This document shows positions 533 to 48,504 of a stretch of 64,000 nt of DNA, in pieces. The DNA comes from Thermoanaerobaculia bacterium (GTDB taxonomy: Bacteria > Acidobacteriota > Thermoanaerobaculia > UBA5066), in assembly GCA_963719225.1 (NCBI GenBank), contig CAVRAY010000001.1, forward strand, positions 1,472,001 through 1,536,000, written 5' to 3'. The notes beneath the pieces are model-generated. The model worked only from the letters and a program-made list of their open reading frames with translations. It was not told where the DNA came from and did no database searches. A program made the translations under genes and the position numbers. Every line of letters starts with the position of its first letter. The first letter of the stretch is position 1.

Positions 533-1542
533 CGCGCGCCGGGCCGGGCGAGAACGAAGAGTCCGGCCGTTCCCGCGGCCAGAGTCGCGAGGAGATGCAC
601 GACGACGCCGCTCACCGCCCCCGCCGCGAGAGAGACGCCGTCGAGCGCGAGCGCCGCCATCCAGCCTGACTCGGCCGTGCCGAATGTCCCGGCGGGCGAC
701 GGGACGAGCGCCGCGGCGACGGTGGCCGTGATCGTCGCGAAGGCGAGCGCCGCGAAGCCCACGTCGATCCCGAGGCCCGCCATCGTGAGCCGAAGCCCGA
801 CGATGTGCGCCGCGAGGAACGCGATCGAGAGAAGACATGCCGACGCATAGGCGAGGCGGTCGCGCCGCGCCACGGCGAGGCCGCCCCTGACGTCCTCGAG
901 AACGCGCTCGAATCGCGAGCCTTTTTGCGCGCGAGACGAAAGGGCGTCGAGAACCGCTCCGCCCGCCTCCGGGAGAAGGGCGAGGCCGGCGAGAAGGACG
1001 CAGAAGAGTCCGGCGGCCCACGGGCTTCCCGCCACGCGGTGTCGCAGGAGGACGACCGTTCCTCCTGCGAGGCCCACGAGGACGGCGGAGGCCGTGTCGA
1101 TCAGCTTGACGAGGACGAAGACCCCGCCCGAACGCGACCACGAGACTCCGAGCTCGCGATGTACGAGCCCGAGCGACGCCACGTCGCCGCCCCGGAACGG
1201 AACGACCTGCACGAGGAAATGCGTGGCGCCGGAGAGGCCGAAAGCCCGAGCCGGCGGGATCCGCTCGTTCTTCGGAAGCAGAAAGTTCAGGCGGCCGGCC
1301 CGAAGCGCGTGGGAGGCGAAAAACACCGCGAAGCCGGCGAGGAGCAGCGCAGGATCGGCGTGCCGGAGACTTTCGAGGGCGCCGGGGGGAGCGCGTCGGA
1401 TCGCAAGGACGAACAGTACGGCCAGCGCGGTCGTGAAGAGAAGACCGAAGAGTTTCTTAGAAAGGGTGAGAGGGGCGCGGCGCGGGGAAGTCGCCTCGGA
1501 ATCCTGCTGCGCCGGTGCCGCGGCGGGCATGAGTTCATTCAC
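529..1542 (-). CDS. Lysylphosphatidylglycerol synthase TM / UPF0104 flippase-like membrane protein
   Basis: Multiple hydrophobic helices; VPFRGGD and PSPAGTFGTAE motifs; translationally coupled to the upstream glycosyltransferase. Confidence 0.75.
   Translation of the reverse strand: MNELMPAAAPAQQDSEATSPRRAPLTLSKKLFGLLFTTALAVLFVLAIRRAPPGALESLRHADPALLLAGFAVFFASHALRAGRLNFLLPKNERIPPARAFGLSGATHFLVQVVPFRGGDVASLGLVHRELGVSWSRSGGVFVLVKLIDTASAVLVGLAGGTVVLLRHRVAGSPWAAGLFCVLLAGLALLPEAGGAVLDALSSRAQKGSRFERVLEDVRGGLAVARRDRLAYASACLLSIAFLAAHIVGLRLTMAGLGIDVGFAALAFATITATVAAALVPSPAGTFGTAESGWMAALALDGVSLAAGAVSGVVVHLLATLAAGTAGLFVLARPGAR
1454..1462. repeat. TTCTnAGAA palindromic motif in purine-rich patch (inside CDS)
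   Basis: GAAGAGT-TTCTTAGAA-AGGGTGAGAG; see findings. Confidence 0.6.
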
Positions 1543-2513
1543 CTTCTAAGAATTTCCTCTTCTTCTTCCCTCTTCCCCGACTCCCGGCGGCGCTTCTCGA
1601 GCACCAGCTCCTCGAGGAGGGTGCGGTTGATGGAGATGAGGTCCGCGAGGAGCCCCGAAAGCACGCAGACGACGGCCGCGACGAAGAGCACGGCCGCGAG
1701 GAGAAGCGACTGGATGTGGCCCGCCGGGTTGTGGTCCGCCACGACGAGGTAGACGTAGCGCCCGACGAGCGCGAGGCCGGCGGCGGCGAGGAGCGACGCG
1801 CAGCCGAAGAAGACGGGTAGCGGCTTGTACAGAGCCGTGATGCGCAGGATGTTCGCGCCCTGCACGAGCACGTAGTTCGTCGAGCGCCGGATGAGGCGCG
1901 ACGGCCGCACGGGCGGGTTCGTGCGCACCGGGACCGAGGCGACGGCGATCTCCTTGTTACCGGCCTGGATGAGCGTCTCGAGCGTGTACGTCATTCTCGA
2001 GAAGACGTTGAGCCGAAGAGCGGCCTCACGGGTGAGGGCGCGGAAGCCCGAGGTCGCGTCCGGCACCTCCGTTCCCGAGGCGCGCCGCACCACCCACGAG
2101 CCGAAGCGCTGGGTCAGACGCTTGCCGGGAGAGAAATCCGGCTTCGTCGCGACGCCGCGGTCGCCCACGACGATCTCGGCTTCGCCTTTGAGGAGGGGCG
2201 CCACGAGGGTCTCGACGTCGGCCGCCGCGTACTGTCGGTCCGCGTCCGTCGAGACGATGACGTCGGCTCCGAGGCGCAGGGCCGCGTCGAGGCCCGCGCG
2301 CCACGCGAACGCGAGGCCGCGATGGATCGGAAGCCGCACGACGTGGTCGGCGCCCGCCCGACGCGCGGCCTCTGAGGTCCCGTCGGTGGAGCCGTCGTCC
2401 ACGACCAGGGTTTCCACGACGTCGAAGCCCTGCACCCGGCGCGGCAGCTCCGCGAGGGCCGCGCCGAGCTGCTCCGCCTCGTCCCAGGCGGGAATCTGGA
2501 TGACGAGCTTCAT
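1539..2513 (-). CDS. Glycosyltransferase family 2 (DPM1-like) with C-terminal TM helices
   Basis: MKLVIQIPAWDE start; VVDDGSTDGT, DAD and DATSGFRA motifs; the ORF extension upstream of 2513 overlaps the LysM gene and is not protein-like. Confidence 0.9.
   Translation of the reverse strand: MKLVIQIPAWDEAEQLGAALAELPRRVQGFDVVETLVVDDGSTDGTSEAARRAGADHVVRLPIHRGLAFAWRAGLDAALRLGADVIVSTDADRQYAAADVETLVAPLLKGEAEIVVGDRGVATKPDFSPGKRLTQRFGSWVVRRASGTEVPDATSGFRALTREAALRLNVFSRMTYTLETLIQAGNKEIAVASVPVRTNPPVRPSRLIRRSTNYVLVQGANILRITALYKPLPVFFGCASLLAAAGLALVGRYVYLVVADHNPAGHIQSLLLAAVLFVAAVVCVLSGLLADLISINRTLLEELVLEKRRRESGKREEEEEILRR
1544..1552. repeat. TTCTnAGAA palindromic motif in purine-rich patch (purine strand is minus)
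   Basis: Minus strand reads GAAGAAGAGGAAA-TTCTTAGAA-GGTGAATG. Confidence 0.6.
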
Positions 2514-2576
2514 GGCGTGCCTGCAAGAGGTTAGCAGGGGACCGTGATATGACGGCCCCCTCATCAGGAGGTCGAT

Positions 2577-2837
2577 ATGAGCTATCCCGACGAAAAAGAA
2601 AACGAGCCGGATTTCTCGGACGTCACGAGCGGCAGCTCGAGCACAGCGGGCGCGCCCGCGGGCGAGACCGTCACCCGGACGTACACGGTCGTCTCGGGCG
2701 ACAGCCTGTCGAAGATCGCGAAGAGGATCTACGGCGACGCGAACCGCTGGAAGGAGATCTGGGAGGCCAACAAGGACAAGGTCAAGAACCCCGACCTCAT
2801 TCACCCCGGCCAGGAACTGAAGATTCCGGGCGCCTGA
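2577..2837 (+). CDS. Small LysM domain protein
   Basis: YTVVSGDSLSKIAKRIYGDANRWKEIWEAN...NPDLIHPGQELKIP; AGGAGG RBS upstream. Confidence 0.9.
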   Translation: MSYPDEKENEPDFSDVTSGSSSTAGAPAGETVTRTYTVVSGDSLSKIAKRIYGDANRWKEIWEANKDKVKNPDLIHPGQELKIPGA

Positions 2838-2854
2838 TCAACAAGGAGATGACG

Positions 2855-3319
2855 ATGAGAAACCGCTTTGCCCTGCCCGTGCTCGTTTTCGTCGCGACCG
2901 TCTCGCTCGCCGCTTGCGCGAAGAAAGAGCCCCCAGCGCCGGCGCCGACGCCCGTGCCGGTCCCGACGGCCGTGCCCACGCCCGTTCCGTTCAAGGTCGC
3001 GTCGGTCGACCTCGGGAAGTCCATCGGGGACGACAAGAAGATCAAGGACGCCGCGACGGCGTTCGGTCCCAAGGACACGATCTACGCAGTCGTCTCGACC
3101 GAGGGTGTCGCCGCGAAGGCCACGCTCAAGGCGCGCTGGACGTTTGGCGCGAAGGGGACGCTCGTGAACGAGGAAGCGCGCGACATCGCGCCGACGGGAC
3201 CCGCCGCCACGGAATTTCACATCGCGAAGGCCTCGGGCTGGCCGGTGGGCCATTACAAGGTCGAGATCTCGGCCGACGGGACGGTCGCCGCAACGAAGGA
3301 GTTCGACGTCAAGAAGTAG
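2855..3319 (+). CDS. Putative lipoprotein (Pro-rich linker + Ig-like domain)
   Basis: AAGGAG RBS at 2843-2848; lipobox LAAC; PAPAPTPVP linker. Confidence 0.75.
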   Translation: MRNRFALPVLVFVATVSLAACAKKEPPAPAPTPVPVPTAVPTPVPFKVASVDLGKSIGDDKKIKDAATAFGPKDTIYAVVSTEGVAAKATLKARWTFGAKGTLVNEEARDIAPTGPAATEFHIAKASGWPVGHYKVEISADGTVAATKEFDVKK

Positions 3320-3393
3320 ACCGCGCGTTTCGGTGAGAGGAAGGGGTGCGACGGTCTGAGTCGCGCCCCTTTCCGTCGGCGGGAGGTCGCCCG

Positions 3394-4800
3394 ATGAAGA
3401 GAATCCTCCGGATCCTGCCCATTGCCCTCGGCCTGGCCGCCGCGTCCGCCTTCGCGCAGGAGGGGCCGCCCAGGGAAAGTCGTTCCTTTCGCGAGCCGGA
3501 CCTCGTGGAGATCGTGCGGCTCGATCCGACCATTCGGCTCGACGTCCGGTACGCGACTTCGAAGAACCTTCTCGGCCGTCCCGTGTATGCCGAGGCGCGT
3601 GCGTTCCTCCAGCGCCCGGCCGCCGAGGCGCTCGTGCGCGTGAACCGCGCGCTGAAGGAGAAGGGATACGGGCTCATGATCTTCGACGGCTACCGGCCCT
3701 GGGCGGTCACGAAGCTGTTCTGGGACGCGACGCCGGCCGACAAGAAGATCTTCGTCGCCGACCCGAAGAAGGGCTCGCGGCACAACAGGGGCTGCGCCGT
3801 CGACCTCTCGCTTTACGAGCTCGCAACGGGGCGTGAGGCCGACATGGGCGGCGCTTACGACGAGATGTCGGCGCGCTCGTACCCGACCTGGGACAAGGGG
3901 ACCAGAGAAGTCCTCGCCCGCCGGGCCCTCCTCGCCGCCGCGATGGAAAAAGAGGGTTTCTTCGAATATGTGGCCGAGTGGTGGCACTTCGACTACAAGG
4001 ACTGGCTCGAGTATCCGATTCTGGACGTTCCGTTCACGGCTCTCGGAGCACCGAGGGCCGCGTTCAGCGAAGTCCTGAACCTGCGTCAGGCGCACGTCGT
4101 CGATCTCACGCACTCCTTCGACGAGAAGACGCTCTACTGGCCGACCTCGCCTTCCGCCTTCGAGCTGAAGACGCTCGCGAAGGGAACGACCCCCGGCGGC
4201 TGGTTTTATTCGTCGAATTCGTTTTGCACGCCCGAGCACGGCGGAACGCATCTCGACGCGCCCGTACACTTCTCGGCGGCGGGGGAGAGCGCCGACAAGG
4301 TGCCGGTCCGGAAGCTCGTCGCTCCGGCGGTCGTTCTCGACGTGACGGCCAAGGCGGCGCAGGACCCGGATTACCGGCTCACGGCCGCGGACGTGAAGGA
4401 CTGGGAGGCGGCGCACGGTGCGATTCCGCGCGGCGCGATCGTCCTGCTCAGGACCGGGTGGTCGGCGCGCTGGCCGGACCGCAAGCGCTATTTCGGCGAC
4501 GACACGCCGAACGACGCGTCACATCTCCACTTTCCCTCCTACGGGAAGGAGGCGGCGGAATTCCTCGTTCGGGAGCGCGCGGTCGGAGCGCTCGGCGTCG
4601 ACACGGCCTCCATCGATTACGGTCCCTCGCAGGACTTCCCCGTCCACCGCATCGCGGCGGCCGCCCAGGTCCCCGGGCTCGAAAACCTCACCGGCCTCGG
4701 GGAGCTTCCCGAGACCGGTGCGTGGCTCGTCGCGTTGCCGATGAAGATCGCCGGAGGCTCAGGCGGCCCGCTGAGGGTCGTGGCGCTCGTCGGAGACTGA
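3394..4800 (+). CDS. Secreted fusion: M15D D-Ala-D-Ala dipeptidase (VanX/DdpX-like) + cyclase/kynurenine formamidase-like domain
   Basis: Signal peptide; SRHNRGCAVD and EWWHF zinc motifs; second domain with HGGTHLDAP, GVDTASID and GGSGGPLR. Confidence 0.85.
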   Translation: MKRILRILPIALGLAAASAFAQEGPPRESRSFREPDLVEIVRLDPTIRLDVRYATSKNLLGRPVYAEARAFLQRPAAEALVRVNRALKEKGYGLMIFDGYRPWAVTKLFWDATPADKKIFVADPKKGSRHNRGCAVDLSLYELATGREADMGGAYDEMSARSYPTWDKGTREVLARRALLAAAMEKEGFFEYVAEWWHFDYKDWLEYPILDVPFTALGAPRAAFSEVLNLRQAHVVDLTHSFDEKTLYWPTSPSAFELKTLAKGTTPGGWFYSSNSFCTPEHGGTHLDAPVHFSAAGESADKVPVRKLVAPAVVLDVTAKAAQDPDYRLTAADVKDWEAAHGAIPRGAIVLLRTGWSARWPDRKRYFGDDTPNDASHLHFPSYGKEAAEFLVRERAVGALGVDTASIDYGPSQDFPVHRIAAAAQVPGLENLTGLGELPETGAWLVALPMKIAGGSGGPLRVVALVGD

Positions 4801-5267
4801 TGGCCACGCTGCGCCAGCGCCTGATGATCCGGCTGGTGAGCCTCTACCCGCCGTACGTCGGCGCGGGGATCCGGGTCTCGTATCCGAAGGACGATCCGCA
4901 TCGGATCGTCGTGCGGATGGGGCTCCACTGGTGGAACCAGAACCTCTTCGGCACGCAGTTCGGCGGCTCGATGTACTCGATGTGCGATCCGCACTTCGTC
5001 TTCATCGTCACGAAGAACCTCGGACCCGGCTACGTCGTGTGGGACAAGGCCGCCCAGATCGAGTTCCTGAAGCCGGGACGCGGCGCGGTCAGGGCGACCT
5101 TCGTCGTTCCGCCGGAGAAGATAGAGGAGATCCGCGCGGCCGCCGACCGGGGAGAAAAAGTCGAGCCCGTCTTCGCGGCCGACGTCGTCGCGGAAGCCGG
5201 CGGCGAGGTCGTCGCACGCGTCACGAAGCGACTCTGGGTGAGAAAGAAGGATCCCTCTAGAACTTGA
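4800..5267 (+). CDS. DUF4442/YiiD-like hotdog-fold thioesterase domain protein
   Basis: YPPYVGAGI, NLFGTQFGGSMYSMCDP and VWDKAAQIEFLKPG motifs; TGATG coupling with upstream gene. Confidence 0.8.
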   Translation: MATLRQRLMIRLVSLYPPYVGAGIRVSYPKDDPHRIVVRMGLHWWNQNLFGTQFGGSMYSMCDPHFVFIVTKNLGPGYVVWDKAAQIEFLKPGRGAVRATFVVPPEKIEEIRAAADRGEKVEPVFAADVVAEAGGEVVARVTKRLWVRKKDPSRT

Positions 5268-5457: not shown

Positions 5458-5501
5458 AGTCCGAGCCTTCCACGGTCTGTGGAGCAAGTTCTCTGCCCGA
5501 C

Positions 5502-10852
<5,351 letters not shown>

Positions 10853-11231: not shown

Positions 11232-11302
11232 ACCTCTTTCGCCCCCAAGAGACCCGTTCGTGAATTTCTTTCTTGTTCGGAAGAACGAAGAGAAGACGAT
11301 TT

Positions 11303-11311
11303 TTCTGAGAA
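11303..11311. repeat. TTCTnAGAA motif in purine-rich patch upstream of thrS
   Basis: GAAGACGATTT-TTCTGAGAA-GGGAAGAGGG. Confidence 0.6.
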
Positions 11312-11327
11312 GGGAAGAGGGTTTGGT

Positions 11328-13327
11328 ATGTCCTCGGTGGCGAGCTCGAATCGGATTGACCCGGCGGTTGGAGAAGGCGGCGGAAATATCCGTCTGACGC
11401 TGCCCGATGGTTCCGTGCGCGAAGTCCCTTCGGGCACGACGGGCCGTGCCGTGGCCGAGTCGATCGGGCCCCGCCTCGCCAAGGACGCGCTGGCCGTGAA
11501 GCTCGCCGGCGAGGTTCTCGACCTTTCCCGCCCGCTCCGGACGTCCGGCTCCTTCGAGGTCGTCACGCCGAAGCACCCGGACGCGCTCGAGCTGTACCGC
11601 CACTCCACGGCGCACCTCTGCGCGAACGCCGTCAAGCGCCTCTTCCCGGGCGTGAAGATCGGCATCGGCCCGGCCATCGAGAACGGCTTCTATTACGACT
11701 TCGACCCGGGCCGGCCGTTCACGCCCGAAGACCTCGAGAAGATCGAGGCCGAGATGAAGAGGATCGTCGCCGAGGACAACGCCGTCGTCCGCAAGGAGAT
11801 GTCGAAGGCCGAGGCCGTGAAGCTCTTCGAGGCCCAGAACGATCCGCTCAAGGTCGAGATCGTCGACGGGCATTCCCGAGGGCAGCCTCTCCTGCTACGA
11901 GCAGAAGGACTTCATCGACCTCTGCCGCGGACCCGCACGTGCCGTCCACGGGAAAGCTCGGCGTCTTCAAGCTCACGCACGCGGCGGGCGCGTACTGGAA
12001 GGGCGACGAACGGAACCCGATGCTCCAGCGCATCTACGGAGCCGTCTTTCTCACGCAGAAGGAGCTGGACGCGCACCTCGCGAGGCTCGAGGCTGCGCGA
12101 GCGCGCGACCACCGAAAGCTCGGCAAGGAGCTCGCGCTCTTCGTGTTCCACCCGTGGGCCCCGGCGTCGCCGTTCTTCCTCCCGCGGGGCGCGACGGTCT
12201 ACAACCTCCTGATCGACTGGATCCGCGCCCTGTACGTCAAGTACGGGTATCAGGAGATCCTCACGCCCCAGATCTTCGACGAGGAGCTGTTCACGACCTC
12301 GGGGCACACGGGCAACTACCGCGAGAACATGTTCTTCGTCCAGGTCGACGAGCGCGAGTTCGGCGTGAAGCCGATGAACTGCCCGGGGCACTGCCTCGTG
12401 TTCGGATCTCAGGCGTTCAGCTACCGGGACCTGCCCGTGCGGTACGCCGATTTCGCGCGCCTCCACCGGTACGAGAAGTCGGGCGTCACACAGGGCCTCA
12501 CGCGCGTCCGCTCCTTTTCGCAGGACGACGCTCACATCTTCGCGGCTCCCGAGAGCATCGATCGCGAAGTGGCGTCGTTCCTGACGTTCCTCGACGAGGT
12601 CTACGGGACGTTCGCATTCCAGGACGTCGCGATCTCCCTCGGGCTGAGGCCCGAGAAGCGCGTCGGAGCCGACGCCGTCTGGGATCGGGCCGAAAAGGTG
12701 CTCGAGGCGGCCCTGAAGGCGACCGGCCGCCCCTTCGTCGTCTCGCCGGGCGACGGAGCCTTCTACGGTCCCAAAATCGACTTCCGCGTGAACGACGCGA
12801 TCGGGCGGCCCTGGCAGCTCGGCACGTTCCAGTGCGACTTCAACCTCCCCGAGCTCTTCGATCTGCACTACACGGCCGAGGACGGGACGAAGCAGCGCCC
12901 CGTCCTCCTGCACCGCGCCATCCTCGGCTCGCTCGAGCGCTTCCTCGGAATCCTCATCGAGCACACGGGTGGCGACTTTCCGTTCTGGCTCGCGCCGGAA
13001 CAGGTGCGCGTCGTGCCGGTCTCGGAGAAGTTCAATGAATACGGGGAGAAGATTCTTAGAAGGGTAAGAGAGGCCGGGCTGCGCTCAACGAGCGACCTCA
13101 GGAGCGAAAAGCTGGGCGCGAAGATCCGCCACGGGGAGCTCGAGAAAGTTCCCGCGCTCCTCATCGTCGGCGAGAAGGAGCAGGCGGCCGGGACGGTCTC
13201 CCTGCGCGTCCGACACGGCGGGGAGTTCAAGGATCAGAATATCGAAGAGCTTCTAAGAACGATGAAGAGCGCGGTTGCGAACCGCTCGCTCACATGGCAC
13301 CAAACGTCAACCGCTCGCGAACAGTAA
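11328..13327 (+). CDS. thrS: Threonyl-tRNA synthetase (two apparent +1 homopolymer insertions at ~11870 and ~11933)
   Basis: TGS domain; HSTAH; DLCRGPH in the intermediate frame; KPMNCPGH, FYGPKID, HRAILGSLERF. Confidence 0.95.
13053..13061. repeat. TTCTnAGAA motif inside thrS
   Basis: GGAGAAGA-TTCTTAGAA-GGGTAAGAGAG, forcing codons ATT CTT AGA AGG GTA AGA. Confidence 0.6.
13251..13259. repeat. TTCTnAGAA motif inside thrS
   Basis: GAAGAGC-TTCTAAGAA-CGATGAAGAG, codons CTT CTA AGA. Confidence 0.6.
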
Positions 13328-13340: not shown

Positions 13341-13892
13341 ATCGCATTTTTCAGAGGCGGCCCCCGCGTTCCCCCCACGAAGAACTCTCCCATAAACGAG
13401 TTCATCCTGCGCTTCCAGAACGTCCGGCTCATCGGCTCGGACGGAGCCCAGCTCGGCGTCGTCGATCCGCCCTCCGCCATCGCGAAGGCGCGCGAGGAAG
13501 GCCTCGACGTCGTCGTGATCGCCGAGCAGGCCGACCCTCCGGTCTGCAAGATCATGGATTTCGGCAAGTTCACGTTCGAGAAGAAGAAGAAAGAGCACGA
13601 GTCGAAGAAGAAACAGAAGATCACCCAGGTCAAGGAGATCAAGTTCCGGCCGAACATCGACGAGCACGACTACGACTTCAAGCTGCGGAACATCCTCCGG
13701 TTCCTGGAGGAGGGCGACAAGGTGAAAGCCACCGTCCAGTTCCGCGGCCGCGAAATGTCGCGCCTCGACAACGGGCGGAAGGTCCTCGACCGGCTCATCA
13801 AGGACCTCGAGGGCCGGGCACACGCCGAATCCGGCACGGAGATGATGGGAAACCGGATGCACCAGATCCTCGGCCCGATCAAGAAGCACTGA
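13341..13892 (+). CDS. infC: Translation initiation factor IF-3 (non-canonical ATC start)
   Basis: PPVCKIMDFGK, VKEIKFRPNIDEHD, GDKVK..FRGRE; AAGGAGG RBS at 13326-13332 then in-frame ATC at 13341. Confidence 0.92.
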   Translation: MAFFRGGPRVPPTKNSPINEFILRFQNVRLIGSDGAQLGVVDPPSAIAKAREEGLDVVVIAEQADPPVCKIMDFGKFTFEKKKKEHESKKKQKITQVKEIKFRPNIDEHDYDFKLRNILRFLEEGDKVKATVQFRGREMSRLDNGRKVLDRLIKDLEGRAHAESGTEMMGNRMHQILGPIKKH

Positions 13893-14561: not shown

Positions 14562-15659
14562 GTGGTGGACCTTCTTCAGGCGATCGAAGAAAGACGAAGA
14601 GATTTCTTCGAAGAGTTGAAGACCGCCGAGGGAAAGGTCGCGGCCGGGGTGCTCCTCCCGGCGGATGTGCGCGCTCTGCACGTGCGTTGGCTCGGACAGA
14701 AGCAGGGCCTGGTGACTGAGCTCCTGGCGGGCCTTCGGACCCTTTCGAAGGAAAACAAGGCTCCCGCCGGCGCCGCCATCAACAAGCTCAAGAAGGACGT
14801 GGAGACTGCGCTCTCCACCCTCGAAGAATCTTCGGTGCTCTTCGAACGCCAGCAGAGGCAGAGGGCGCTCGCCGTCGACGTGACGCTCCCCCCGCGCGCT
14901 CCGCGCCTCGGGCGGCTGCATCCGCTTACGGTCGTGAGGCGGCGGATCGAAGCCGCCTTCGCGTCGTTGGGCTACGAGGTCGCGCACGGCCCGGACGTCG
15001 AGACCGACTGGCTGAACTTCGGGGCGCTGAATTTCCCGCCCGACCATCCTGCGCGCGACGCGGTGGACACGTTCTTCGTGAAAGGCGGCGGGGAGGGCGA
15101 CGACCGTCTGCTCCTGCGCACGCACACGTCGCCGGTCCAGATCCGGACGATGCTCGCTCAAAAGCCCCCGATCCGGATCGTGATCCCCGGCCGCGTCTAC
15201 CGGAAGGACGACATCGATCCGCGCCACTCGCCGGTCTTCCATCAGATGGAGGGGCTCACGGTGGACGAGGGCATCACGTTCGCCGACCTGAAAGGCACGC
15301 TTGCGGCGTTCGCCCGGCTGCTCTTCACGCCCGAGACGAAGATCCGGTTCGGACCGACGTTCTTCCCGTTCGTCGAGCCGGGAGTGGACGTCGCGGTTTC
15401 GTGCGTCTTCTGCAAGGGCACGGGCAGCGCCCAGGGGGGCGCATGCCGACCGTGCTCGGGCACCGGCTGGATCGAGATCCTGGGCGCGGGGATGGTGCAT
15501 CCCGCGGTGCTGAGGAACGGAGGCATCGACCCCGAGAAGTATTCGGGATTCGCGTTCGGCATGGGAATCGACCGTGTCGCGTTCCTCGTCTACGGCGTGC
15601 CGGACCTGCGGCTCTTCTTCGAGAACGACGTGCGCTTCCTCGATCGCGTGTGGAGCTGA
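14562..15659 (+). CDS. pheS: Phenylalanyl-tRNA synthetase alpha subunit
   Basis: HPARD, LLRTHTSPVQIR, FHQMEGL, FPFVEP, GFAFGMGIDR; CxxC...CxxC insert; start approximate. Confidence 0.96.
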   Translation: MVDLLQAIEERRRDFFEELKTAEGKVAAGVLLPADVRALHVRWLGQKQGLVTELLAGLRTLSKENKAPAGAAINKLKKDVETALSTLEESSVLFERQQRQRALAVDVTLPPRAPRLGRLHPLTVVRRRIEAAFASLGYEVAHGPDVETDWLNFGALNFPPDHPARDAVDTFFVKGGGEGDDRLLLRTHTSPVQIRTMLAQKPPIRIVIPGRVYRKDDIDPRHSPVFHQMEGLTVDEGITFADLKGTLAAFARLLFTPETKIRFGPTFFPFVEPGVDVAVSCVFCKGTGSAQGGACRPCSGTGWIEILGAGMVHPAVLRNGGIDPEKYSGFAFGMGIDRVAFLVYGVPDLRLFFENDVRFLDRVWS

Positions 15660-15666
15660 GAGCGCG

Positions 15667-17808
15667 ATGAAGTTCTCCCACGAGTGGATCGCGTCGTATC
15701 TGCCCGGCCCCGCGCCGGACCCGAAGGGTCTCGGCGACCGCCTGACGGCGGTGGGTTTCATCGTCGAGGGAGTCGAAGGCTCGGGCGCGGACACCGTTTA
15801 CGACGTCGAGATCACGGCGAACCGGCCCGACGGGATGAGCCACCGGGGCCTCGCGCGCGAAGCGGCCCTCGCGCTGTCCCGGACCTTCGCAGAGCCCGCC
15901 CGTCCCCCGCTGCGCGAGAGCGATACGACGGCCGACATGCGGGCCCGCGTCTACGTCGAGGAGCCGGAGCTCTGCTCGCGGTATTCCGCGCGCGTCCTAG
16001 AGGGGATCCGCGTGGCCGCGCCTGGCGGCGCCGTGGCGGCACGGCTTCGCGCGATCGGCGCCGGAACGATCTCAGCCCCGGTGGACGCCACGAACCACGT
16101 CCTCTGGGACATCGGCCAGCCGCTCCACGCTTTCGACCTCGACTCGCTCGCGAAAGGGGTCGACGGATTCCCGACGATCATCGTTCGGCGCGCCCGGGCG
16201 GGAGAGACGCTCGTGACGCTCGACGGCGTCACGCGCGCGCTGTCGCCGCAGCACCTCGTGATCGCGGACGCCGAGAAGCCCGTCGCCCTCGCGGGCGTCA
16301 TGGGCGGACTCGAGACGGCGATCTCGGATCGGACGACGCGCGTCCTCCTGGAGGGAGCGCATTTCGATCCGCGCGCGGTGCGCAGGACGTCACGCTCTCT
16401 CGGCATGCACACGGACGCGTCGCACCGGTTCGAGCGGGGAGCCGATCCCGAAGCGACGCGCGACGGGCTCGACCGCGCCGCCCGCCTGATCCTGGAGTCG
16501 TGCGGCGGCACTCTGTGTCGGGGGACGATCGACGTCCGCGAACGGCGGTCGAGCCCCCACGCGCCCCGGGTGCTCACGCTCCGCCTCGCGCGGCTCACGG
16601 CATTCCTCGGGATGGACATCGCGGCCGGGCGCTGCGTGGAGATCCTCGCCGCGCTCGGGTTCTCTCCGGTCCACGTCGGCGACACCGTGCGCGTCACGGT
16701 ACCCTCCTGGCGTGTCGACATCGCCGGTGAGGAGGACCTCGTCGAGGAGGTCATCCGCTGTGAGGGCTACGAGCGGCTGCCCGAGACGCTGCCGAGTTCG
16801 TACGCGCCGGCGCGTCCGCCCGAGGCGGCGCTCGTCGAGGACCGCGCGCGCGACCTCCTCGCGGGCTTCGGGCTCCTCGAGTGCGCGACGTACTCGTTCG
16901 TCTCGGAAGCAGAGAATGCCCCGTTCGTCTCCGCCGCGCCGGGCGCGCCGGTCCTCGTCGAGAACGCACTCGGCGAGCCCTTCACGACGATGCGCGCGAC
17001 CCCCGTGATCGGGCTCCTGCAAAGTGCCCGTCACAACGTGCGGCGCGGCCAGAAGGACCTCGCTCTCTTCGAGGTAGGGACGGCGTTCGGGTGGAATCAA
17101 GAGAAGATTTCTGCTGAAGAGAAGACGGGGGAAGGAAGAGTCATCGAAAGAACGAAAGTCGGGATCCTCCTCGCCGGCGCAAGAAACCGCCATTGGTCGC
17201 AGGGGGAGACGGCGAATTCGGATTTCTTCGATGGGGCGGGAATTGCAGAGGCGCTCATGAAAGGCCTCGGCTTGGGGGGCGCTTCGTCCCCTATTACCTT
17301 CAAAGAAAATCTTCCGGTCTCTTCGTACCTGGCCCCTGGGCGCGCTGCCCGCATTCTCTGCGCGGGCCGCGAAGCCGGATGGGTTGGCGTCCTCGAGCCT
17401 TCGCTCGCCGCCTCCTGGGATCTGACCGATCCCGTCGTGGCCGATCTCGACCTCGATGTCCTTGCGGCCGCGCTGCCCCCTCCCGAGACGTCCGTCGAGC
17501 CCCCGCCCCGTTTTCCCGGCAGCGAAGTGGATCTCACCGTGACACATCCGCTTTCGACTTCGTGGAGAACGCTCGAATCGGCCGTGCGCGCGGGCGCGCC
17601 AGTGGAGCTCGTGGCAGTCGAGGCGAAAGGACGCTACCAGGGTCCCGGCGTCAAGGGTGGTTTCGTGAAGACGACGTTGACCCTGCGGTTCGGCTCGCCG
17701 CTCGGCACTCTCGCGCGTGAGGACGTGAACGCGTGGCGCGACGCCGCGGCCCGGCGCCTTCTGGCGCTGAAAGATGCCGCGGTGGACGGCGTACCGGCGT
17801 CAAATTGA
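15667..17808 (+). CDS. pheT: Phenylalanyl-tRNA synthetase beta subunit (short form, no B2 OB-fold)
   Basis: EITANRPD, GQPLHAFD, ALAGVMGG, TDASHRFERG, DLVEEVIR. Confidence 0.93.
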   Translation: MKFSHEWIASYLPGPAPDPKGLGDRLTAVGFIVEGVEGSGADTVYDVEITANRPDGMSHRGLAREAALALSRTFAEPARPPLRESDTTADMRARVYVEEPELCSRYSARVLEGIRVAAPGGAVAARLRAIGAGTISAPVDATNHVLWDIGQPLHAFDLDSLAKGVDGFPTIIVRRARAGETLVTLDGVTRALSPQHLVIADAEKPVALAGVMGGLETAISDRTTRVLLEGAHFDPRAVRRTSRSLGMHTDASHRFERGADPEATRDGLDRAARLILESCGGTLCRGTIDVRERRSSPHAPRVLTLRLARLTAFLGMDIAAGRCVEILAALGFSPVHVGDTVRVTVPSWRVDIAGEEDLVEEVIRCEGYERLPETLPSSYAPARPPEAALVEDRARDLLAGFGLLECATYSFVSEAENAPFVSAAPGAPVLVENALGEPFTTMRATPVIGLLQSARHNVRRGQKDLALFEVGTAFGWNQEKISAEEKTGEGRVIERTKVGILLAGARNRHWSQGETANSDFFDGAGIAEALMKGLGLGGASSPITFKENLPVSSYLAPGRAARILCAGREAGWVGVLEPSLAASWDLTDPVVADLDLDVLAAALPPPETSVEPPPRFPGSEVDLTVTHPLSTSWRTLESAVRAGAPVELVAVEAKGRYQGPGVKGGFVKTTLTLRFGSPLGTLAREDVNAWRDAAARRLLALKDAAVDGVPASN

Positions 17809-18171: not shown

Positions 18172-18531
18172 ATGGCTTCAAAACCGTCCGTCACACAGGT
18201 GGAAATCTTCGGCCAGACGTACTCCGTCCGGGCCGCGGGGGATCCCGCGTACATCCAGGAGCTCGCAACCTTCGTGGACCAGAAAATGCGCGAGGTTTCC
18301 GAGCACGCGCCGACGGTCGACGCCGCGAAAATCGCCATCCTCACGGCGCTCAACATTTCCGACGAGTTCCATCAGTACCGTTCCAAGTCAGGCTCCGAGG
18401 GTGATCCGGGGCGGGTCGCGAAGCGCGCGACCCGTCTCGTCGAAAAACTCGACGAGATCCTGAAGTCGTCTACTCGGGCCATTCCGGCGAGGGCCGGCAG
18501 CGAATCGATCGGCACCCTGCGCGGTGCGTGA
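18172..18531 (+). CDS. zapA: Cell division protein ZapA
   Basis: VEIFGQTYSV, LATFVDQKM, AILTALNISDE; extended -10 TGCTATCCT at ~18129. Confidence 0.9.
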   Translation: MASKPSVTQVEIFGQTYSVRAAGDPAYIQELATFVDQKMREVSEHAPTVDAAKIAILTALNISDEFHQYRSKSGSEGDPGRVAKRATRLVEKLDEILKSSTRAIPARAGSESIGTLRGA

Positions 18532-18689
18532 ATGGGATATGTCCTTGAACCGATATTTCAATCGTGGAGTCACCGTACCTGGGCCGTCCTGTGATGCCCC
18601 TTCGGGGGAACTAATGGTCTGCCCCGTGGGCTCCCCCTGTCTTACGACGGGTTCAATCGACACACCCCACACGGCCGAGGCGGGGCGCC
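18511..18689 (+). ncRNA. ssrS: 6S RNA
   Basis: Canonical zapA-6S-rny position; ~180-nt rod with GGCACCCTGC/GCGGGGCGCC ends, TTGAACC/GGTTCAA and GGAGTCAC/GTGGGCTCC stems around a central bubble. Confidence 0.85.
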
Positions 18690-18785
18690 TTTATCGCGCC
18701 CATCCGAGGAGACCCTTCCGGGTTCGCGTCTAGCTTTCGACCGGATCACCCTCGAAAGAACGTTTCGATCGAGGGGGACCGACCC

Positions 18786-20387
18786 GTGAATTCCATTCAA
18801 GTCATCGCCGTCGAGGCCGCGCTCGCGGTCTTCGCCGTGGGTGTCCTCATCTGGGCCCTGAGGACCCGGGGGGCGGCCTCGATCGCGAAGGCCGAAGCCG
18901 AGCTCGAGGCTCGCAAGAAGCTCGAGGAGGCGAAGCTCGCCGCCGAGTCCGCCGTCCGGCGCGCCGAGGCCACCGCCCAGAAGACCGAGCTCGATGCGAA
19001 GGAGCGGGCGCTCAAGGCACGCGAGGCCGCGGAGCAGGAGGCCGCGAAAAGGCGCGCCGAGCTCCTGGACCAGGAAAAGCGCCTTCTTCAGAAGGAAGAG
19101 ACCCTCGACAAAAAGATCGTCGTCGCCGAGAAACGCGAGATGGAGTCCGAGAATCGCGCCCAGAACCTCACGAAGCGCGAGAAGCGGGTCGAGGAGACCG
19201 AGGCCGAGGCCCAGAAAAAGGCCGAGGAGATCGTCCAGGAGCAGCGCGAAAAGCTCGAGAGGATCGCCGGTCTCACGGCCGAGCAGGCCAAGCGTGACCT
19301 GATCCGCGAGCTCGAGAACGAGGCGCGCCTCGAGGCGACCGGCCTCGTGCGCCGGATCGAGGAAGACGCCGTCGAGAGCGCGAACTGGAAGGCGAAACGG
19401 CTCCTCTCGATGACGATCCAGCGCATGGCGTCCGAGCACGTCGTCGAGACGACCGTGTCGGTCCTCGACCTCCCGTCCGACGACATGAAAGGGCGGATCA
19501 TCGGCCGCGAAGGCCGCAACATCCGGGCCGTCGAGGCCGCGACGGGCGTCGACATCATCATCGACGACACGCCGGAAGCGATCCTTCTCTCCTCGTTCGA
19601 CCCGATCCGCCGCGAAGTCGCGCGGCGCGCGCTCGAGCGCCTCATCCAGGACGGGCGCATTCATCCGGCGCGGATCGAAGAGGTCGTCGAGAAGGTCCGC
19701 GAGGAGCTGTGGCTGGACGTCAAGACCACGGGTGAAGCCGCGGCGTTCGAGTTCGGAATCGCCGACCTCCATCCGGAGGTCGTGAAGCTGCTCGGGCGGC
19801 TGAAGTACCGCACGAGCTACGGCCAGAGCGTCCTCCAGCACAGCAAGGAGGTCGGATGGGCCGCGTGCCACCTCGCGAGCGAGCTGGGGGCCGACGTGAC
19901 GGTCGCCAAGCGCGCGGGACTCCTCCACGACATCGGCAAGGCGATCGACCGCGAGCAGGAAGGAACCCACCTCGAGCTCGGCCGGCAGATTCTCAAGAAA
20001 TACGGCGAGACGGAGTCCGTCATCCACGGCATGGAATGCCACCACGGCGACTACGAGCCCCGCACGATCGAGGCGGTCCTCGTGAACGCGGCCGACGCGA
20101 TCTCGGCCGCGCGGCCGGGAGCGCGCCGCGAGATCCTGGAGACCTACGTCAAGCGCCTCGAGAAGCTCGAGAAGATGACGGAAGGCATGAAGGGCGTCGA
20201 GCGCACCTTCGCGATCCAGGCGGGCCGCGAGCTGCGCGTGATCGTGGACGCGAAGAAGGTCACGGACGACGAGTGCCTCTGGATGTCGAAGGACATCGCC
20301 AAGCGCGTCGAGGCGGAACTGCAATATCCAGGGCAGATAAAGATCACCGTCATCCGAGAGACAAGGGCCGTTGATTTTGCAAAATAA
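18786..20387 (+). CDS. rny: Ribonuclease Y
   Basis: N-terminal TM, coiled coil, KH (MKGRIIGREGRNIR), HD (LLHDIGK). Confidence 0.97.
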   Translation: MNSIQVIAVEAALAVFAVGVLIWALRTRGAASIAKAEAELEARKKLEEAKLAAESAVRRAEATAQKTELDAKERALKAREAAEQEAAKRRAELLDQEKRLLQKEETLDKKIVVAEKREMESENRAQNLTKREKRVEETEAEAQKKAEEIVQEQREKLERIAGLTAEQAKRDLIRELENEARLEATGLVRRIEEDAVESANWKAKRLLSMTIQRMASEHVVETTVSVLDLPSDDMKGRIIGREGRNIRAVEAATGVDIIIDDTPEAILLSSFDPIRREVARRALERLIQDGRIHPARIEEVVEKVREELWLDVKTTGEAAAFEFGIADLHPEVVKLLGRLKYRTSYGQSVLQHSKEVGWAACHLASELGADVTVAKRAGLLHDIGKAIDREQEGTHLELGRQILKKYGETESVIHGMECHHGDYEPRTIEAVLVNAADAISAARPGARREILETYVKRLEKLEKMTEGMKGVERTFAIQAGRELRVIVDAKKVTDDECLWMSKDIAKRVEAELQYPGQIKITVIRETRAVDFAK

Positions 20388-20398
20388 GGAAGAAGATT

Positions 20399-20407
20399 TT
20401 CTTAGAA
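20399..20407. repeat. TTCTnAGAA motif, rny-ymdB intergenic
   Basis: GGAAGAAGATT-TTCTTAGAA-GGAAAGAGGGG. Confidence 0.6.
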
Positions 20408-20462
20408 GGAAAGAGGGGCATCGTGCCCTATTCACCTTGAAAGAAAGTTTGCAGACCGGTTC

Positions 20463-24093: not shown

Positions 24094-25527
24094 ATGTCGA
24101 GTCGCCCCCCCGGCCGTGGGTTCGTCGTTCGCCGCGTGACCATGCGCCGCGTCGCCGAGACGCAGATGTCCTTCGGAGACACGGGCCCGGACGCGACGGC
24201 GATGACCGTGTCGGAACTCGTGCGGCGAATGAACGGGATTCTCAAAGGGGGGATTCCGGACGTTTGGGTGAAGGGTGAGATCGCCAACTTGCAGCGCCCG
24301 GGCTCGGGCCACCTCTATTTTTCTTTGAAGGATGAGCGGGCGGCGATGCCGTGTCTGATGTGGCGGAGCACCGTCGTCCGTCTTCCCTTCGAAGCAGAAG
24401 AAGGACTTCTCGTCCTGGCGCGAGGCTACCCGGACGTGTACGCATCGTCCGGGAAGCTCTCTCTCGTCGTTTCCGAGCTGCAGCCCTCGGGCATCGGCGC
24501 GCTCCAGCTCGCCTACGAGCAGCTGAAAGCTCGCCTTGCCGCGGAGGGGCTCTTCCAGGCCGCCCGGAAGCGGCCGCTGCCGCTCCTGCCGCGGCGCATC
24601 GGCATCGTGACGTCGCGTCACGCGGCCGCTCTGCGCGACATCCTCAAGGTCCTGGGGGCGCGCTTTCCGAACGCGCACGTGACGATCTACCCGGCCTCGG
24701 TCCAGGGTCCGACGGCGGCATGGGAAATCGTGCGCGCGCTCAACGCCTTCACCCGAGTTCCTGGATCCGCGGACGTCCTCATCGTCGCGCGCGGCGGAGG
24801 CTCGAAGGAGGACCTCGCGGCGTTCAACGACGAGGCGGTCGTCCGCGCCGTCGCGGCCTCGCGCGTGCCCGTGATCTCCGCCGTCGGCCACGAAGTCGAC
24901 GTGACGCTCACCGATCTCGCGGCGGACCTCCGCGCGGCGACGCCCTCCCAGGCGGCGGAGCTCGTCGTGGAGCGTCTCGACCGCTTCGAGGAGCGCCTCG
25001 AGCGCGGGGAGAGGGATTTGAGGATTTCCTTGAAGGGGAAAATGGACAGGGCCGCGCACCGCGTCGCCGGGCTCGCATCGGCGCCTGCCCTGACGCAGTT
25101 TCGAGCGACCGTTCGCCAGGCCGGGGTCGATTCGCGCGCCACGGCGCGCGCTCTTTTCTCTTCCTTTCAGAGAATCCCCTCTTCTCTTCTCTTACGTGTC
25201 TCGCGCTACGAAGAGAGCGTGCGGGGCTGGGTCGACCGCGCGGCACTCCCGTTCCTCCTCGACCGGGTCGCGTCCGAGAGACGCGCCGCCGCCGACCGCA
25301 TCGCCGCGCGCATCGCGGCCGCGAACGAGAAGCTGAGCGTTGCGGTCGGGCGCCTCGAGGCATTGAGCCCGCTGCGGGTTCTCGCGCGCGGGTATGCGAT
25401 CGTGACGAAGGAAGGCCAGACGGTTCCCGTGACCGACGCCGGGAGCCTTGCGGCCGGCGATTCCGTGCAGGTGCGACTCGCCCGCGGGCGCGCCTCCGCC
25501 CGCGTCCTTTCTACGGAGACCACATGA
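24094..25527 (+). CDS. xseA: Exodeoxyribonuclease VII large subunit
   Basis: SGHLYFSLKD, ARGGGSKEDL, SAVGHEVD, AATPSQAAE, LSPLRVLARGY. Confidence 0.96.
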   Translation: MSSRPPGRGFVVRRVTMRRVAETQMSFGDTGPDATAMTVSELVRRMNGILKGGIPDVWVKGEIANLQRPGSGHLYFSLKDERAAMPCLMWRSTVVRLPFEAEEGLLVLARGYPDVYASSGKLSLVVSELQPSGIGALQLAYEQLKARLAAEGLFQAARKRPLPLLPRRIGIVTSRHAAALRDILKVLGARFPNAHVTIYPASVQGPTAAWEIVRALNAFTRVPGSADVLIVARGGGSKEDLAAFNDEAVVRAVAASRVPVISAVGHEVDVTLTDLAADLRAATPSQAAELVVERLDRFEERLERGERDLRISLKGKMDRAAHRVAGLASAPALTQFRATVRQAGVDSRATARALFSSFQRIPSSLLLRVSRYEESVRGWVDRAALPFLLDRVASERRAAADRIAARIAAANEKLSVAVGRLEALSPLRVLARGYAIVTKEGQTVPVTDAGSLAAGDSVQVRLARGRASARVLSTETT

Positions 25528-29786: not shown

Positions 29787-31751
29787 GTGACGGCGATCCT
29801 CGGCCTCTCGGCCTACTACCACGACGCGGCGGCGTGTCTTCTCGTCGACGGGACGATCGTCGCCGCGGCCCAGGAAGAGCGCTTCACGCGCAAGAAGCAC
29901 GACGCGGAATTTCCCGCTCACGCGGCGCGCTATTGCCTCGAGGCGGGCGGGCTCACCGCCGACCGCCTCGACCACGTCACGTTCTACGACAAGCCGCTCG
30001 TGAAATTCGAGCGCCTCTTCGAGACGTATCTCGACTACGCGCCGCGCGGATTCGCGTCCTTCCGCAAGGCGATGCCTCTCTGGATCACCGACAGGCTCTG
30101 GATGTCCGAGCGCATCGGGAAGGAGCTGGGCTTTTCGGGCCGGATCCTCTTCTCCGATCATCACGAGTCGCACGCGGCGTCGGCCTTCTACCCGTCGCCG
30201 TACGAGGAGGCCGCCGTGCTCACGATGGACGGCGTCGGGGAATGGGCGACGTCCTCCCTCGGAGTCGGGAGCGGCAACCGGCTCGATATGCAGTCGGAGC
30301 TCAAGTTTCCCCATTCCATCGGCCTTCTCTATTCCGCGTTCACGTACTTCTGCGGTTTCAAGGTGAACAGCGGCGAGTACAAGCTCATGGGCCTCGCGCC
30401 CTACGGCGAGCCGAAGTACACCGGGGTGATCCGCGAGAAGCTCGTCCATGTCTGCGAGGACGGCTCGATCCGCCTCGACATGGATTACTTCGATTTTGCC
30501 GACCGCCTGACGATGACGGGCAGAGGATTCGAGAGGCTCTTCGGCGGCCCGGCGCGCGCGCCCGAGTCGAAGCTCACGCAGCGCGAGATGGACCTGGCAC
30601 GCTCGATCCAGGACGTCACGGAGGAGATCGTCCTGAAGATGGCCCGGCACGCGAAAAAGACGACGGGCGCACGGTATCTCTGCATGGCGGGCGGCGTCGC
30701 TCTGAATTGCGTGGCGAACGGCAAGCTCCTCGAGGCGGGGATCTTCGACGACATCTGGATCCAGCCCGCCGCGGGCGATGCGGGCGGGGCCGTGGGCGCG
30801 GCGCTCTCGATCTGGCACCGCCACCTCGGCAAGTCGCGTGAGAGCGCGGAGACGCGGGGGACATGGAGGCTGGGAAATGAGAAAGAGAAGAAAAGAGAAG
30901 ATTCTTTGAATGAGAATGCAGCAGGTGCGGACGGCGGCGCGCCGCGGGCGACCGATGCGCCCGCCTCAGCGGCGTCCGTTGCCGATCTGCCGCCGTACGA
31001 AGACGGCATGTCGGGCGCGTTCCTCGGCCCCTCTTACCCTTCCAAGCAAATACAGACCTGGCTCGAGTCGAAACATTACCCGTACCGAACTGTTGATCCC
31101 GCCGCGCTCCCAGGCGAAGTTGCCGACCTCCTCGCTTCCGGCAAGATCGTGGGCCTCCTCCAGGGACGCATGGAGTTCGGGCCGCGGGCGCTCGGCGGGC
31201 GCAGCATCCTCGGCGACCCGCGTTCGCCGGCGATGCAGTCGGTCATGAACCTCAAGATCAAGTTCCGCGAGTCGTTCCGGCCGTTCGCGCCGTCCGTCCT
31301 CCGCGAGGACGTGTCGCGCTGGTTCGCGTTTTCGGGAGACTCGCCTTACATGCTCCTCTGCGCCGACGTCGTGGCGGAGAAGCGCCGCGCGATGACCGCC
31401 GAGGAGAACGCGCTCTGGGGAATCGAGAAGCTCAACGTGCCGCGCTCGTCGATCCCCGCGGTCACGCACGTGGATTATTCCGCGCGCCTTCAGACCGTCC
31501 GCCGGGAGACGAACCCCGTCTATCACGCGATCCTTTCCGCATTCCAGGAGCGCACGGGCTGTCCCGTCGTCGTGAACACGTCGTTCAACGTGCGCGGCGA
31601 GCCGATCGTCTGCACACCCGAGGACGCGTACCGCTGCTTCATGCGGACGGCGATGGACGTCCTCGTCCTCGAGAACCACGTCCTCCTGCGCGACGATCAG
31701 CCGCCCGCCGCCGACGGAGAGGACTGGAAGAAGACGTTCACGCTCGACTGA
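29787..31751 (+). CDS. O-carbamoyltransferase (NodU/CmcH/SxtI family)
   Basis: SAYYHDAAA, QEERFTRKKH, HHESHAASAF, GEYKLMGLAPYG, EFGPRALG.RS, NTSFNVRGEP. Confidence 0.94.
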   Translation: MTAILGLSAYYHDAAACLLVDGTIVAAAQEERFTRKKHDAEFPAHAARYCLEAGGLTADRLDHVTFYDKPLVKFERLFETYLDYAPRGFASFRKAMPLWITDRLWMSERIGKELGFSGRILFSDHHESHAASAFYPSPYEEAAVLTMDGVGEWATSSLGVGSGNRLDMQSELKFPHSIGLLYSAFTYFCGFKVNSGEYKLMGLAPYGEPKYTGVIREKLVHVCEDGSIRLDMDYFDFADRLTMTGRGFERLFGGPARAPESKLTQREMDLARSIQDVTEEIVLKMARHAKKTTGARYLCMAGGVALNCVANGKLLEAGIFDDIWIQPAAGDAGGAVGAALSIWHRHLGKSRESAETRGTWRLGNEKEKKREDSLNENAAGADGGAPRATDAPASAASVADLPPYEDGMSGAFLGPSYPSKQIQTWLESKHYPYRTVDPAALPGEVADLLASGKIVGLLQGRMEFGPRALGGRSILGDPRSPAMQSVMNLKIKFRESFRPFAPSVLREDVSRWFAFSGDSPYMLLCADVVAEKRRAMTAEENALWGIEKLNVPRSSIPAVTHVDYSARLQTVRRETNPVYHAILSAFQERTGCPVVVNTSFNVRGEPIVCTPEDAYRCFMRTAMDVLVLENHVLLRDDQPPAADGEDWKKTFTLD

Positions 31752-43438: not shown

Positions 43439-43457
43439 GCCGCCTCCGGGGCCTAGG

Positions 43458-44894: not shown

Positions 44895-45220
44895 GAGTCC
44901 TCCTGTTTGATTCTATTCGGCCCGCCGGTTTTTCGCCGGACTGGAGGTCGAACGCGGAGTCCGAATCGAGGGCAACTCCCTACAGGATGCGTCCGGGCCT
45001 GGCCGAAAGACTGATGCACCTTACCTAGTGGCCGGACAAACTGCGGGGCTCCAAGATTTCCTCGAGACCGATTGACGGCGCCCCTCGATCCCGCGATAGG
45101 ATCGGGACGCATCTCGGAAAGATTTTTCATGACTTCGTCTTCACGAAATGTTTACAGCCGACTGCAAGTCTGCGTGTTGTTTTCCTTCCTTTCATTTCCA
45201 ATTTCAGCAGAGGTGACTAC

Positions 45221-48200: not shown

Positions 48201-48381
48201 ACTCCTCCGTTACGTCAACTTCCAGACGTACACGGCGCTCACCGCCTCCAAAACCGTCGACGCGGCGGGCAGGCCGACCTACACGGTCAACTCGGGCGCG
48301 CTCGACGAGGGGCGGCAGTACAGCACGAACGACCTCCGCTCGCGCTACCAGCTGAAGTGGGGAGCGCGCCTTTCCTTCTAG
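45221..48381 (+). CDS. Oar-like TonB-dependent receptor with carboxypeptidase-regulatory-like N domain (one frameshift at ~47330)
   Basis: Signal peptide; IDGAVNND, GGAINAITKSGTN; C-terminal ARLSF; frame change at CCCCCCGGG homopolymer. Confidence 0.9.
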
Positions 48382-48404
48382 CTCCAGACCCTCTCATTTC
48401 CTGC

Positions 48405-48438
48405 AAGCGCCGGGACTTCATGTTCCGGCGCTTTTTTT
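48405..48438 (+). terminator. Rho-independent terminator
   Basis: AAGCGCCGGGAC-TTCAT-GTTCCGGCGCTT followed by T-run. Confidence 0.85.
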
Positions 48439-48504
48439 GATGCATTCGCTTTCTAAGAGATTCTTCTTCTTTCCGATATTCTACGGTCGCGGAGGAGTTT
48501 TTCG

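Follow-up and report, generated by a model that had tools for sequence, protein, structure and literature searches.

A directional motif, mostly in facing pairs, dispersed through coding and intergenic DNA of one lineage of Thermoanaerobaculia

Across a 64,000-nucleotide stretch of a bacterial chromosome (the window; C1:1,472,001-1,536,000 of genome G000), short purine-rich patches centred on the word TTCTnAGAA recur both inside and between genes. What kind of element would be written into coding and non-coding DNA alike? The initial annotation had proposed a lineage-specific, chromosome-wide signal built on a palindrome. Genome counts and relatives support such a signal, imposed on both kinds of DNA, but the palindrome is not its unit: this is a directional motif of about 30 bp, most copies of which (arms) stand in pairs facing each other. 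In the reading that we favour, with a probability of roughly 0.4, these sites would be bound by a putative lineage-specific complex, loaded from both sides, for chromosome upkeep mainly on the terminus side.

The genome comprises 4.75 Mb in two contigs (C1 and C2) with 68% GC, and is 97% complete with a reported contamination of 6%. The closest named relatives of its RNase Y (91-97%) come from uncultured Thermoanaerobaculia, Acidobacteriota. Genes were called with a hexamer model built for this analysis, which gave 4,153 genes with approximate limits.

A directional unit and its facing partners

All six exact copies of TTCTnAGAA reported for the window (1454, 1544, 11303, 13053, 13251 and 20399) were recovered. 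The accompanying estimate of about 0.1 chance copies per 64 kb was somewhat low (0.38 in our hands), but their rarity stands, as none of 100 shuffles reached six. The five near matches that had been added to them also exist and score 15.6-27.9 bits with their flanks, although cores with one mismatch show no enrichment there by themselves (15 versus 11.2 expected in the window, a count reached in 18 of 100 shuffles). At the level of the whole genome, 318 exact copies were found against 14.3 expected under an order-4 Markov model, and 185 of them within genes against 4-7 in ten synonymous-codon shuffles.

Read along the purine strand, 273 sites have the sequence TTCTTAGAA, which forms the core of a larger unit composed of a purine run, TTTCTTNGAARG and KRAAKRGGG. 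Position 5 of the core is free (A, C, T, G), and the core is therefore written TTTCTTNGAARG; upstream lies the purine run plus a T, and downstream RG followed by KRAAKRGGG. The unit is asymmetric at the centre base, at position 5 and in both flanks, a directionality that had been overlooked together with the facing partners. For a 30-bp, degenerate and paired motif, a role as base-modification site seems unlikely.

Sites were scored with a 34-bp weight matrix at a threshold of 14 bits, exceeded by 948 sites in the genome. A first filter removed 110 of them, which either lay in dense 2-kb bins (six, of which five are artefacts and one, at C1 3.81 Mb, is real) or had more than two core mismatches, and a second one removed 16 sites in multi-copy contexts, 14 of them beside two insertion sequence (IS) families. 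The remaining 822 were analysed; an order-5 Markov simulation (5 matches in 1.5 Mb) predicts about 16. A reversed-genome null was discarded because an assembly artefact inflated it: at C1:54,000-64,000 the + strand is almost devoid of C, with 2 C in 2 kb. In these two IS families (9 and 5 copies), one arm lies within or next to the element, close to one of its ends. About 69% of the sites lie in genes, in both orientations and in all frames, which bears out the earlier claim that neither codon usage nor Shine-Dalgarno sequences produce them.

The pairing is strongly oriented. At distances of 30-300 bp, the 822 sites make 313 facing combinations but only 10 back-to-back and 36 + 33 same-direction ones, with 9.6 expected by chance for each orientation and 98 facing (maximum 122) after permutation of strands. 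In total, 267 pairs take in 65% of the sites, and 160 of these pairs are contained in a single gene. Spacing has an onset at about 65 bp (range 63-250 bp), a mode at about 76 bp (75-79) and a tail to about 250 bp, with 13 short pairs at 37-58 bp; its median is 130 bp for coding and 81 bp for intergenic pairs. This analysis left out 11 pairs in kinase paralogues: tandem Ser/Thr kinase genes (C1:2,293,000-2,315,500 and others) inherited one 93-bp pair, also present in kinases of the sister genus. Even strong sites without a partner (n=197) follow the same geometry, with a weak partner in front of 83 of them and behind 4. Metagenomic pairs have their mode at 76 bp as well (25 of 99, partly orthologues).

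In the window, most sites are paired (1454/1544, 14604/14820, 17224/17299, 20399/20437, 25026/25166 and 30902/31040). The location of sites inside thrS, pheS and xseA is as first described, and there are others at the start of pheS and in pheT. The arms are the following:

1442..1475, + strand: arm, core 1454-1462, 33 bits; in a flippase-like gene that runs on the opposite strand; left member of a 90-bp facing pair
1531..1564, - strand: arm, core 1544-1552, 27.5 bits; at a gene junction; right arm of the 90-bp pair
3946..3979, + strand: unpaired arm, core 3958-3966, 21 bits; within a gene
11291..11324, + strand: unpaired arm, core 11303-11311, 21 bits; in the tRNA-Val/thrS interval; kept by relatives
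13041..13074, + strand: arm, core 13053-13061, 31 bits; in thrS, of insertion-free origin; in 10/10 covering close relatives
13239..13272, + strand: weak arm, core 13251-13259, 11 bits; close to the end of thrS; several relatives have here a stronger arm and a facing partner 76-85 bp further on
13363..13396, - strand: weak facing arm, core 13376-13384, 13.8 bits; in the 5' region of infC
14592..14625, + strand: arm, core 14604-14612, 18 bits; where pheS begins; left member of a 216-bp pair
14807..14840, - strand: facing arm, core 14820-14828, 13.5 bits; in pheS
17097..17130, + strand: weak arm, core 17109-17117; in pheT
17212..17245, + strand: arm, core 17224-17232, 12.8 bits; in pheT; left arm of a 75-bp pair
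17286..17319, - strand: facing arm, core 17299-17307, 31 bits; in pheT; in 11/11 covering close relatives
20387..20420, + strand: arm, core 20399-20407, 33 bits; beyond the RNase Y gene; left member of a short 38-bp pair, spaced 77 bp in some relatives
20424..20457, - strand: facing arm, core 20437-20445, 24 bits
24309..24342, + strand: arm, core 24321-24329, 14 bits; in xseA
25014..25047, + strand: arm, core 25026-25034, 28 bits; in xseA, of insertion-free origin; left arm of a 140-bp pair
25153..25186, - strand: facing arm, core 25166-25174, 15.6 bits; in xseA
30890..30923, + strand: arm, core 30902-30910, 26 bits; left member of a 138-bp pair
31027..31060, - strand: facing arm, core 31040-31048, 29 bits
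48438..48471, - strand: unpaired intergenic arm, core 48451-48459, 22 bits

The GDH locus and the 52-64 kb region had been noted, by eye, as free of exact sites, and indeed nothing above 14 bits occurs in 31.1-48.4 kb or 48.5-64 kb. Other observations in the window concern thrS itself (11328-13327), in which one extra base near 11866 and another near 11931, as compared with locus L005, split the gene over two frames and are likely long-read assembly errors; a 6S RNA gene (Rfam RF00013) at 18511-18690, upstream of RNase Y; and a possible island at 52113-64000, where tRNA-Cys and tRNA-Leu are followed by motif-free genes, one of them with repeats matching streptogramin lyase-type propellers.

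Two facing arms that are roughly complementary by consensus may suggest a hairpin in RNA or single-stranded DNA, or else the ends of an invertible or excisable segment, and the 13 pairs of 37-58 bp could indeed fold. We regard this explanation as largely refuted and give it very little credence. The two arms of a pair resemble or complement each other no more than random arms do (core p ~0.04; flanks 0.11 and 0.44), and their duplex energy (-22.76 versus -22.64 +/- 0.29 for random arms) reveals no covariation. Interiors do not fold (z -0.05 versus -0.01), are mutually unrelated and in many pairs consist of conserved coding sequence; no pair has a match in Rfam. Moreover, base pairing would give no preference for facing over back-to-back arms. 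Regarding inversion, no strand-switch joints at pairs were seen among the rows listed, which come only from contigs of related strains (183 further rows were unlisted), and the arms are non-identical.

New arms are not copied from their partners, and because arms converge on one consensus independently of these partners, each is likely read on its own by a protein. Complexes would then be loaded from both sides onto the DNA between the arms. Spacing has no helical period of 10-11 bp (power 1.8; null 95% 4.6), and a weak 29-bp term (power 7.2) may merely reflect the sharp mode. Given this lack of helical phase and a lower limit of about 65 bp, similar to the footprint of two rings, two complexes covering some 30 bp each that slide and meet would fit better than the bridging of a rigid short loop.

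Spread among relatives and along the chromosome

The core TTCTTAGAA is present in 56-346 copies in all 24 genomes of the genus, versus 0-4 in 16 genomes of two other families, a comparison that includes two unpublished genomes (G025 and G030) and holds without both. In a class-wide draw, an 11-mer had 0-6 copies in 140 genomes outside the genus versus 64-243 inside. With a wider pattern, the genus reached 137-548 copies (27 genomes), its sister genus 16-95 (8 genomes) and other genera of the family 0-10 (26 genomes). As related genomes are not independent, presence of the motif counts as one origin. Among metagenomic stretches, 120 carried a perfect pair; 99 of these were GC-rich, and 98 of the 99 had a homologue in G000. 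A scan of viral sequences gave 12 matches, in contigs of 24-50% GC without the motif flanks, which we take as chance, and a BLAST search against phages gave no match.

Sites are also conserved by place, as illustrated by three in the window (13053, 17299 and 20399) that are kept in 10/10, 11/11 and 9/12 of the covering relatives; when the places of window sites were compared with distant loci, 8 stray matches appeared in 67. Core positions 2, 6, 7 and 8 differ in 0-9% of aligned coding sites against a background of 14%, and the flanks differ more. In two genomes of the sister genus, G082 and G177, several places occupied by sites in G000 contain faded relics, which we read as decay, with slower gain as the alternative. 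The only perfect pair of G082 (C1:1,973,692-1,973,778) lies across the stop codon of rarA and occurs in G176 as well.

The chromosome has normal skew and a single dnaA origin, with dnaA at C2 326 kb, the skew minimum; a dif-like site lies at C1 2,037,574, close to the skew maximum. Assuming that both contigs close into a single circle, the origin half contains 249 sites and the terminus half 573, with a 2-3-fold higher density on the terminus side. Density climbs from 61-77 per Mb near the origin to 181-215 near the terminus in coding DNA, and from 222-293 to 562-1180 in intergenic DNA; the bias is present in every class of codon usage, and no trend was found with codon usage as a proxy for expression. 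This terminus bias points to chromosome upkeep. Site clusters are clumped (coefficient of variation of spacing 1.55), unpaired sites have no leading-strand polarity (132 versus 155) and there is no excess between convergent genes (731 per Mb versus 889 and 494). In another genome (G019), a thin block surrounds an origin-type parB, although lopsidedly (8 sites in 1.14 Mb versus 18 in 0.64 Mb). A second parA-parB pair adjoins dif, opposite the origin (C1:2,037,400-2,040,300), its ParB has a match in 41/41 genomes of the order, and three motif pairs bracket dif together with this operon.

Hundreds of directional copies in one clade also recall the uptake signal sequences (USS) and DNA uptake sequences (DUS) of naturally competent bacteria, so that the motif might be a third such system, a directional uptake or recombination signal under molecular drive. 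Each arm would favour the transfer of DNA 60-250 bp ahead, and facing arms would carry each other, even with costly insertions. The anatomy is USS-like (a core plus flanks, about 30 bp, both strands, about 70% in genes), and in a 250-kb stretch 30 sites lie in 151 genes shared with two relatives and none in 25 unshared genes (about 4.5 expected, a small sample). Drive would explain how the sites override constraint on proteins, and likewise their apparent decay in G082 and G177. The genome has genes for ComEC and ComEA (one of the latter with two HhH domains), for pilins and for PilT-like proteins. Published work on DUS likewise describes a conserved core amid permissive surroundings (PMC2397512), and hundreds of directional copies on both strands, mostly genic, in shared genes and reshaping proteins (PMC2397512, PMC2817400). 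Still, we consider this explanation doubtful. Known uptake sequences are described as more even than random (PMC2817400), whereas ours are clumped and terminus-biased, with many arms arriving within in-frame insertions. According to PMC7811141, two USS within 100 bp raise no uptake and transferred tracts average 6.9 kb. ComEC and ComEA are family-wide, motif-less genera included, and unpaired sites decay no faster than paired ones; ComP was not found, in a search whose positive control also stayed silent. Sequence and phylum differ too, and known uptake sequences form overlapping terminator hairpins, inverted pairs under 30 bp, when facing pairs here start at about 65 bp and mostly lie 63-250 bp apart.

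How arms arise and what they do to proteins

In alignments with outgroups, 43 of the 76 coding sites that could be aligned show a gap no more than 8 residues away, where 18 would be expected. Of 26 pairs located inside genes, some lengthen the protein by 20-40 residues and others leave its length unchanged. With respect to two relatives at 86% identity, an indel lies within 45 bp of 16/24 and 18/31 coding sites (background 6-9%), most often 30-50 bp inside the arms (24 and 31 sites). Amino-acid divergence doubles near sites, with four-fold-site divergence slightly up (0.37-0.44 versus 0.34). Four-fold sites are about twice as AT-rich across the pair interior, and purine-skewed up to 100 bp outside it. 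Selection on the sites would seem to outweigh selection on the proteins they interrupt.

The listed portion of an alignment of five loci across the family distinguished arms made in place from those brought by insertions. In hisA, a 76-bp pair was made in place, the sequence of the outgroup G159 having nearly equal length, and in G000 its purine run was later lengthened into a serine run; the 140-bp pair of xseA and the arm of thrS were also formed without length change. In the gene of RNase R, the first arm was made in place and the second one came with a 60-bp insertion, giving a spacing of 80 bp. In hisD of G000, an in-frame insertion of 102 bp brought a new arm at 78 bp, and the old partner at 64 bp faded. 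Overall, arms arrived within in-frame insertions of 60-102 bp, and at the hemB-hemL junction of G176 an entire pair sits in 93 extra bases where G000 is empty. Moreover, purine runs expand outward from the arms, and 25 of the 37 poly-serine runs of the proteome lie within 80 bp of a site (2.8% expected).

Indel hot spots, arms and even a whole pair delivered by insertions, and runs that grow outward would all be expected of a repeat that writes itself, in which arms are deposited and extended by a selfish process of nicking combined with slippage or with templated repair. Such a repeat could be a degenerate relative of convergent heptamer repeats such as GGGAATC of Xanthomonas, which share with our motif a purine-rich arm that comes first, close convergent pairs (70-75 of them) and places kept between species, according to PMC4692102. 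In G033, from another family, convergent heptamer arrays 50-70 bp apart share words with the arm tail. Ku also occurs in 12/12 high-copy genomes versus 1/8 of the sister genus. We nevertheless hold this origin to be unlikely: many pairs appeared without any length change, interiors are unrelated and unstructured, and the consensus contains no tandem repeating unit. Nor does it contain a G-quadruplex pattern; it has instead a conserved, non-repeating core, and is 70% genic and terminus-biased, whereas the Xanthomonas repeats are about 90% intergenic without terminus bias (PMC4692102). A Y1/RAYT transposase is found in 1/12 genomes of the genus versus 25/29 others, being absent from G000 and from the bracketed genes; the 24 bracketed genes, judged by eye, include no nuclease or transposase, and Ku is found in motif-less genera as well. 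Tandem heptamer arrays of several families occupy C1:780-1180 kb of G033, and in at least one family they form convergent pairs at 50-70 bp; G028 has none.

The peak of indels 30-50 bp inside the arms, and the presence of Ku and a LigD-like gene, would also be compatible with facing sites that direct a nuclease, in a geometry like that of type III restriction, with cuts mended by end joining. This we find hardly credible. Four-fold divergence is barely raised while amino-acid divergence doubles, G176 has 95 sites and no Ku, and cut sites are normally lost, not enriched.

The putative reader and comparison with known systems

Searches in candidate families for a protein that reads the arms found none. 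The second ParB, linked to the terminus, has the same recognition helix in motif-less genera; a four-helix-bundle IVS protein gave one weak match that does not track the motif; the only reverse transcriptase is a group II intron-type gene at a contig end; and none of RAYT, ComEC, ComEA, ComP and Ku tracks the motif exactly. That reverse transcriptase (C2:867,798-871,493) sits amid foreign-looking genes, a possible contamination. Of 456 genes in the terminus region, 62 occur in two relatives but in neither of two outgroup stretches (400 kb each); judged by eye, none is a convincing reader. As leads only, Ku has the distribution given above, Tex (Spt6-like) is found in 0/20 genomes of the two motif genera versus 16/21 others, and a secreted ComEA-like protein with two HhH domains (C1:1,007,226-1,007,921) is present in both motif genera, and in two motif-less ones too. 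A motif pair flanks the start of the gene for this ComEA-like protein, whose linker contains a run of serines derived from an arm.

Besides the missing reader and the rejected ParB, several observations weigh against our preferred reading. Cdc6_C is absent from G000 (the control gave matches in 3 archaea), and the histone fold from 41 genomes. The oriC region is without any arm. Unpaired sites were predicted to decay faster than paired ones if only pairs function, and the prediction failed, since 19/24 and 65/82, respectively, are kept in relatives. Copy number, from 16 to 548 within the clade, is hard to reconcile with one fixed essential need. To our knowledge, chromosome-organising sites such as parS, matS and those of SlmA/Noc number tens, and force no insertions of 20-40 residues into enzymes, a cost that a drive process explains more easily.

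Several known systems share some of these features. Archaeal ORB sites are directional, with a quasi-palindromic core and a G-rich tail. REP/REPIN elements form inverted doublets with a preferred spacing near 70-110 bp, but they are extragenic and their arms are hairpins, in contrast with the motif, whose pair interiors are moreover unrelated. Both matS and KOPS are terminus-biased, and like the motif are dispersed protein-recognition sequences tied to chromosome position. Unlike KOPS and Chi, the motif has no polarity along the replichores, and G000 has a separate, polarised G-rich word. It differs from parS, of which G000 has one canonical copy near the origin, in its far higher copy number and in its pair geometry. 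As for origin recognition, loading of the yeast helicase takes place at two inverted ORC sites with an optimum near 70 bp, as described in PMC12183775; this geometry resembles the facing pairs by analogy only, as G000 lacks the Cdc6/Orc1 winged-helix domain and has one dnaA origin, near which sites are thinnest. Since the motif lacks a defining property of each family considered, it is placed in no known one. Our literature search, mostly without subscription papers and without supplements, retrieved no paper with the motif string or describing such a system.

Altogether, at a little under even odds, we would describe the motif as directional sites that work only head to head, loading a ring-like machine between them (or being carried together by gene transfer), and driven to rewrite and lengthen tRNA synthetases and other essential enzymes; their fading in relatives that had lost the reader would point to its gene. 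In practical terms, the motif accounts for unusual runs of serine, glutamate and lysine, which would mislead the annotation of proteins in the clade. In a broader context, we know only of uptake sequences (PMC2817400) as elements written by hundreds into bacterial proteins regardless of function. A second architecture of this kind, with a measured geometry, a bias in chromosome position and damage to enzymes, implies that these abundant soil bacteria carry out a DNA transaction not yet described, and the graded sister genus, with its 16-95 copies and decayed relics, makes the reader findable by comparative genomics.

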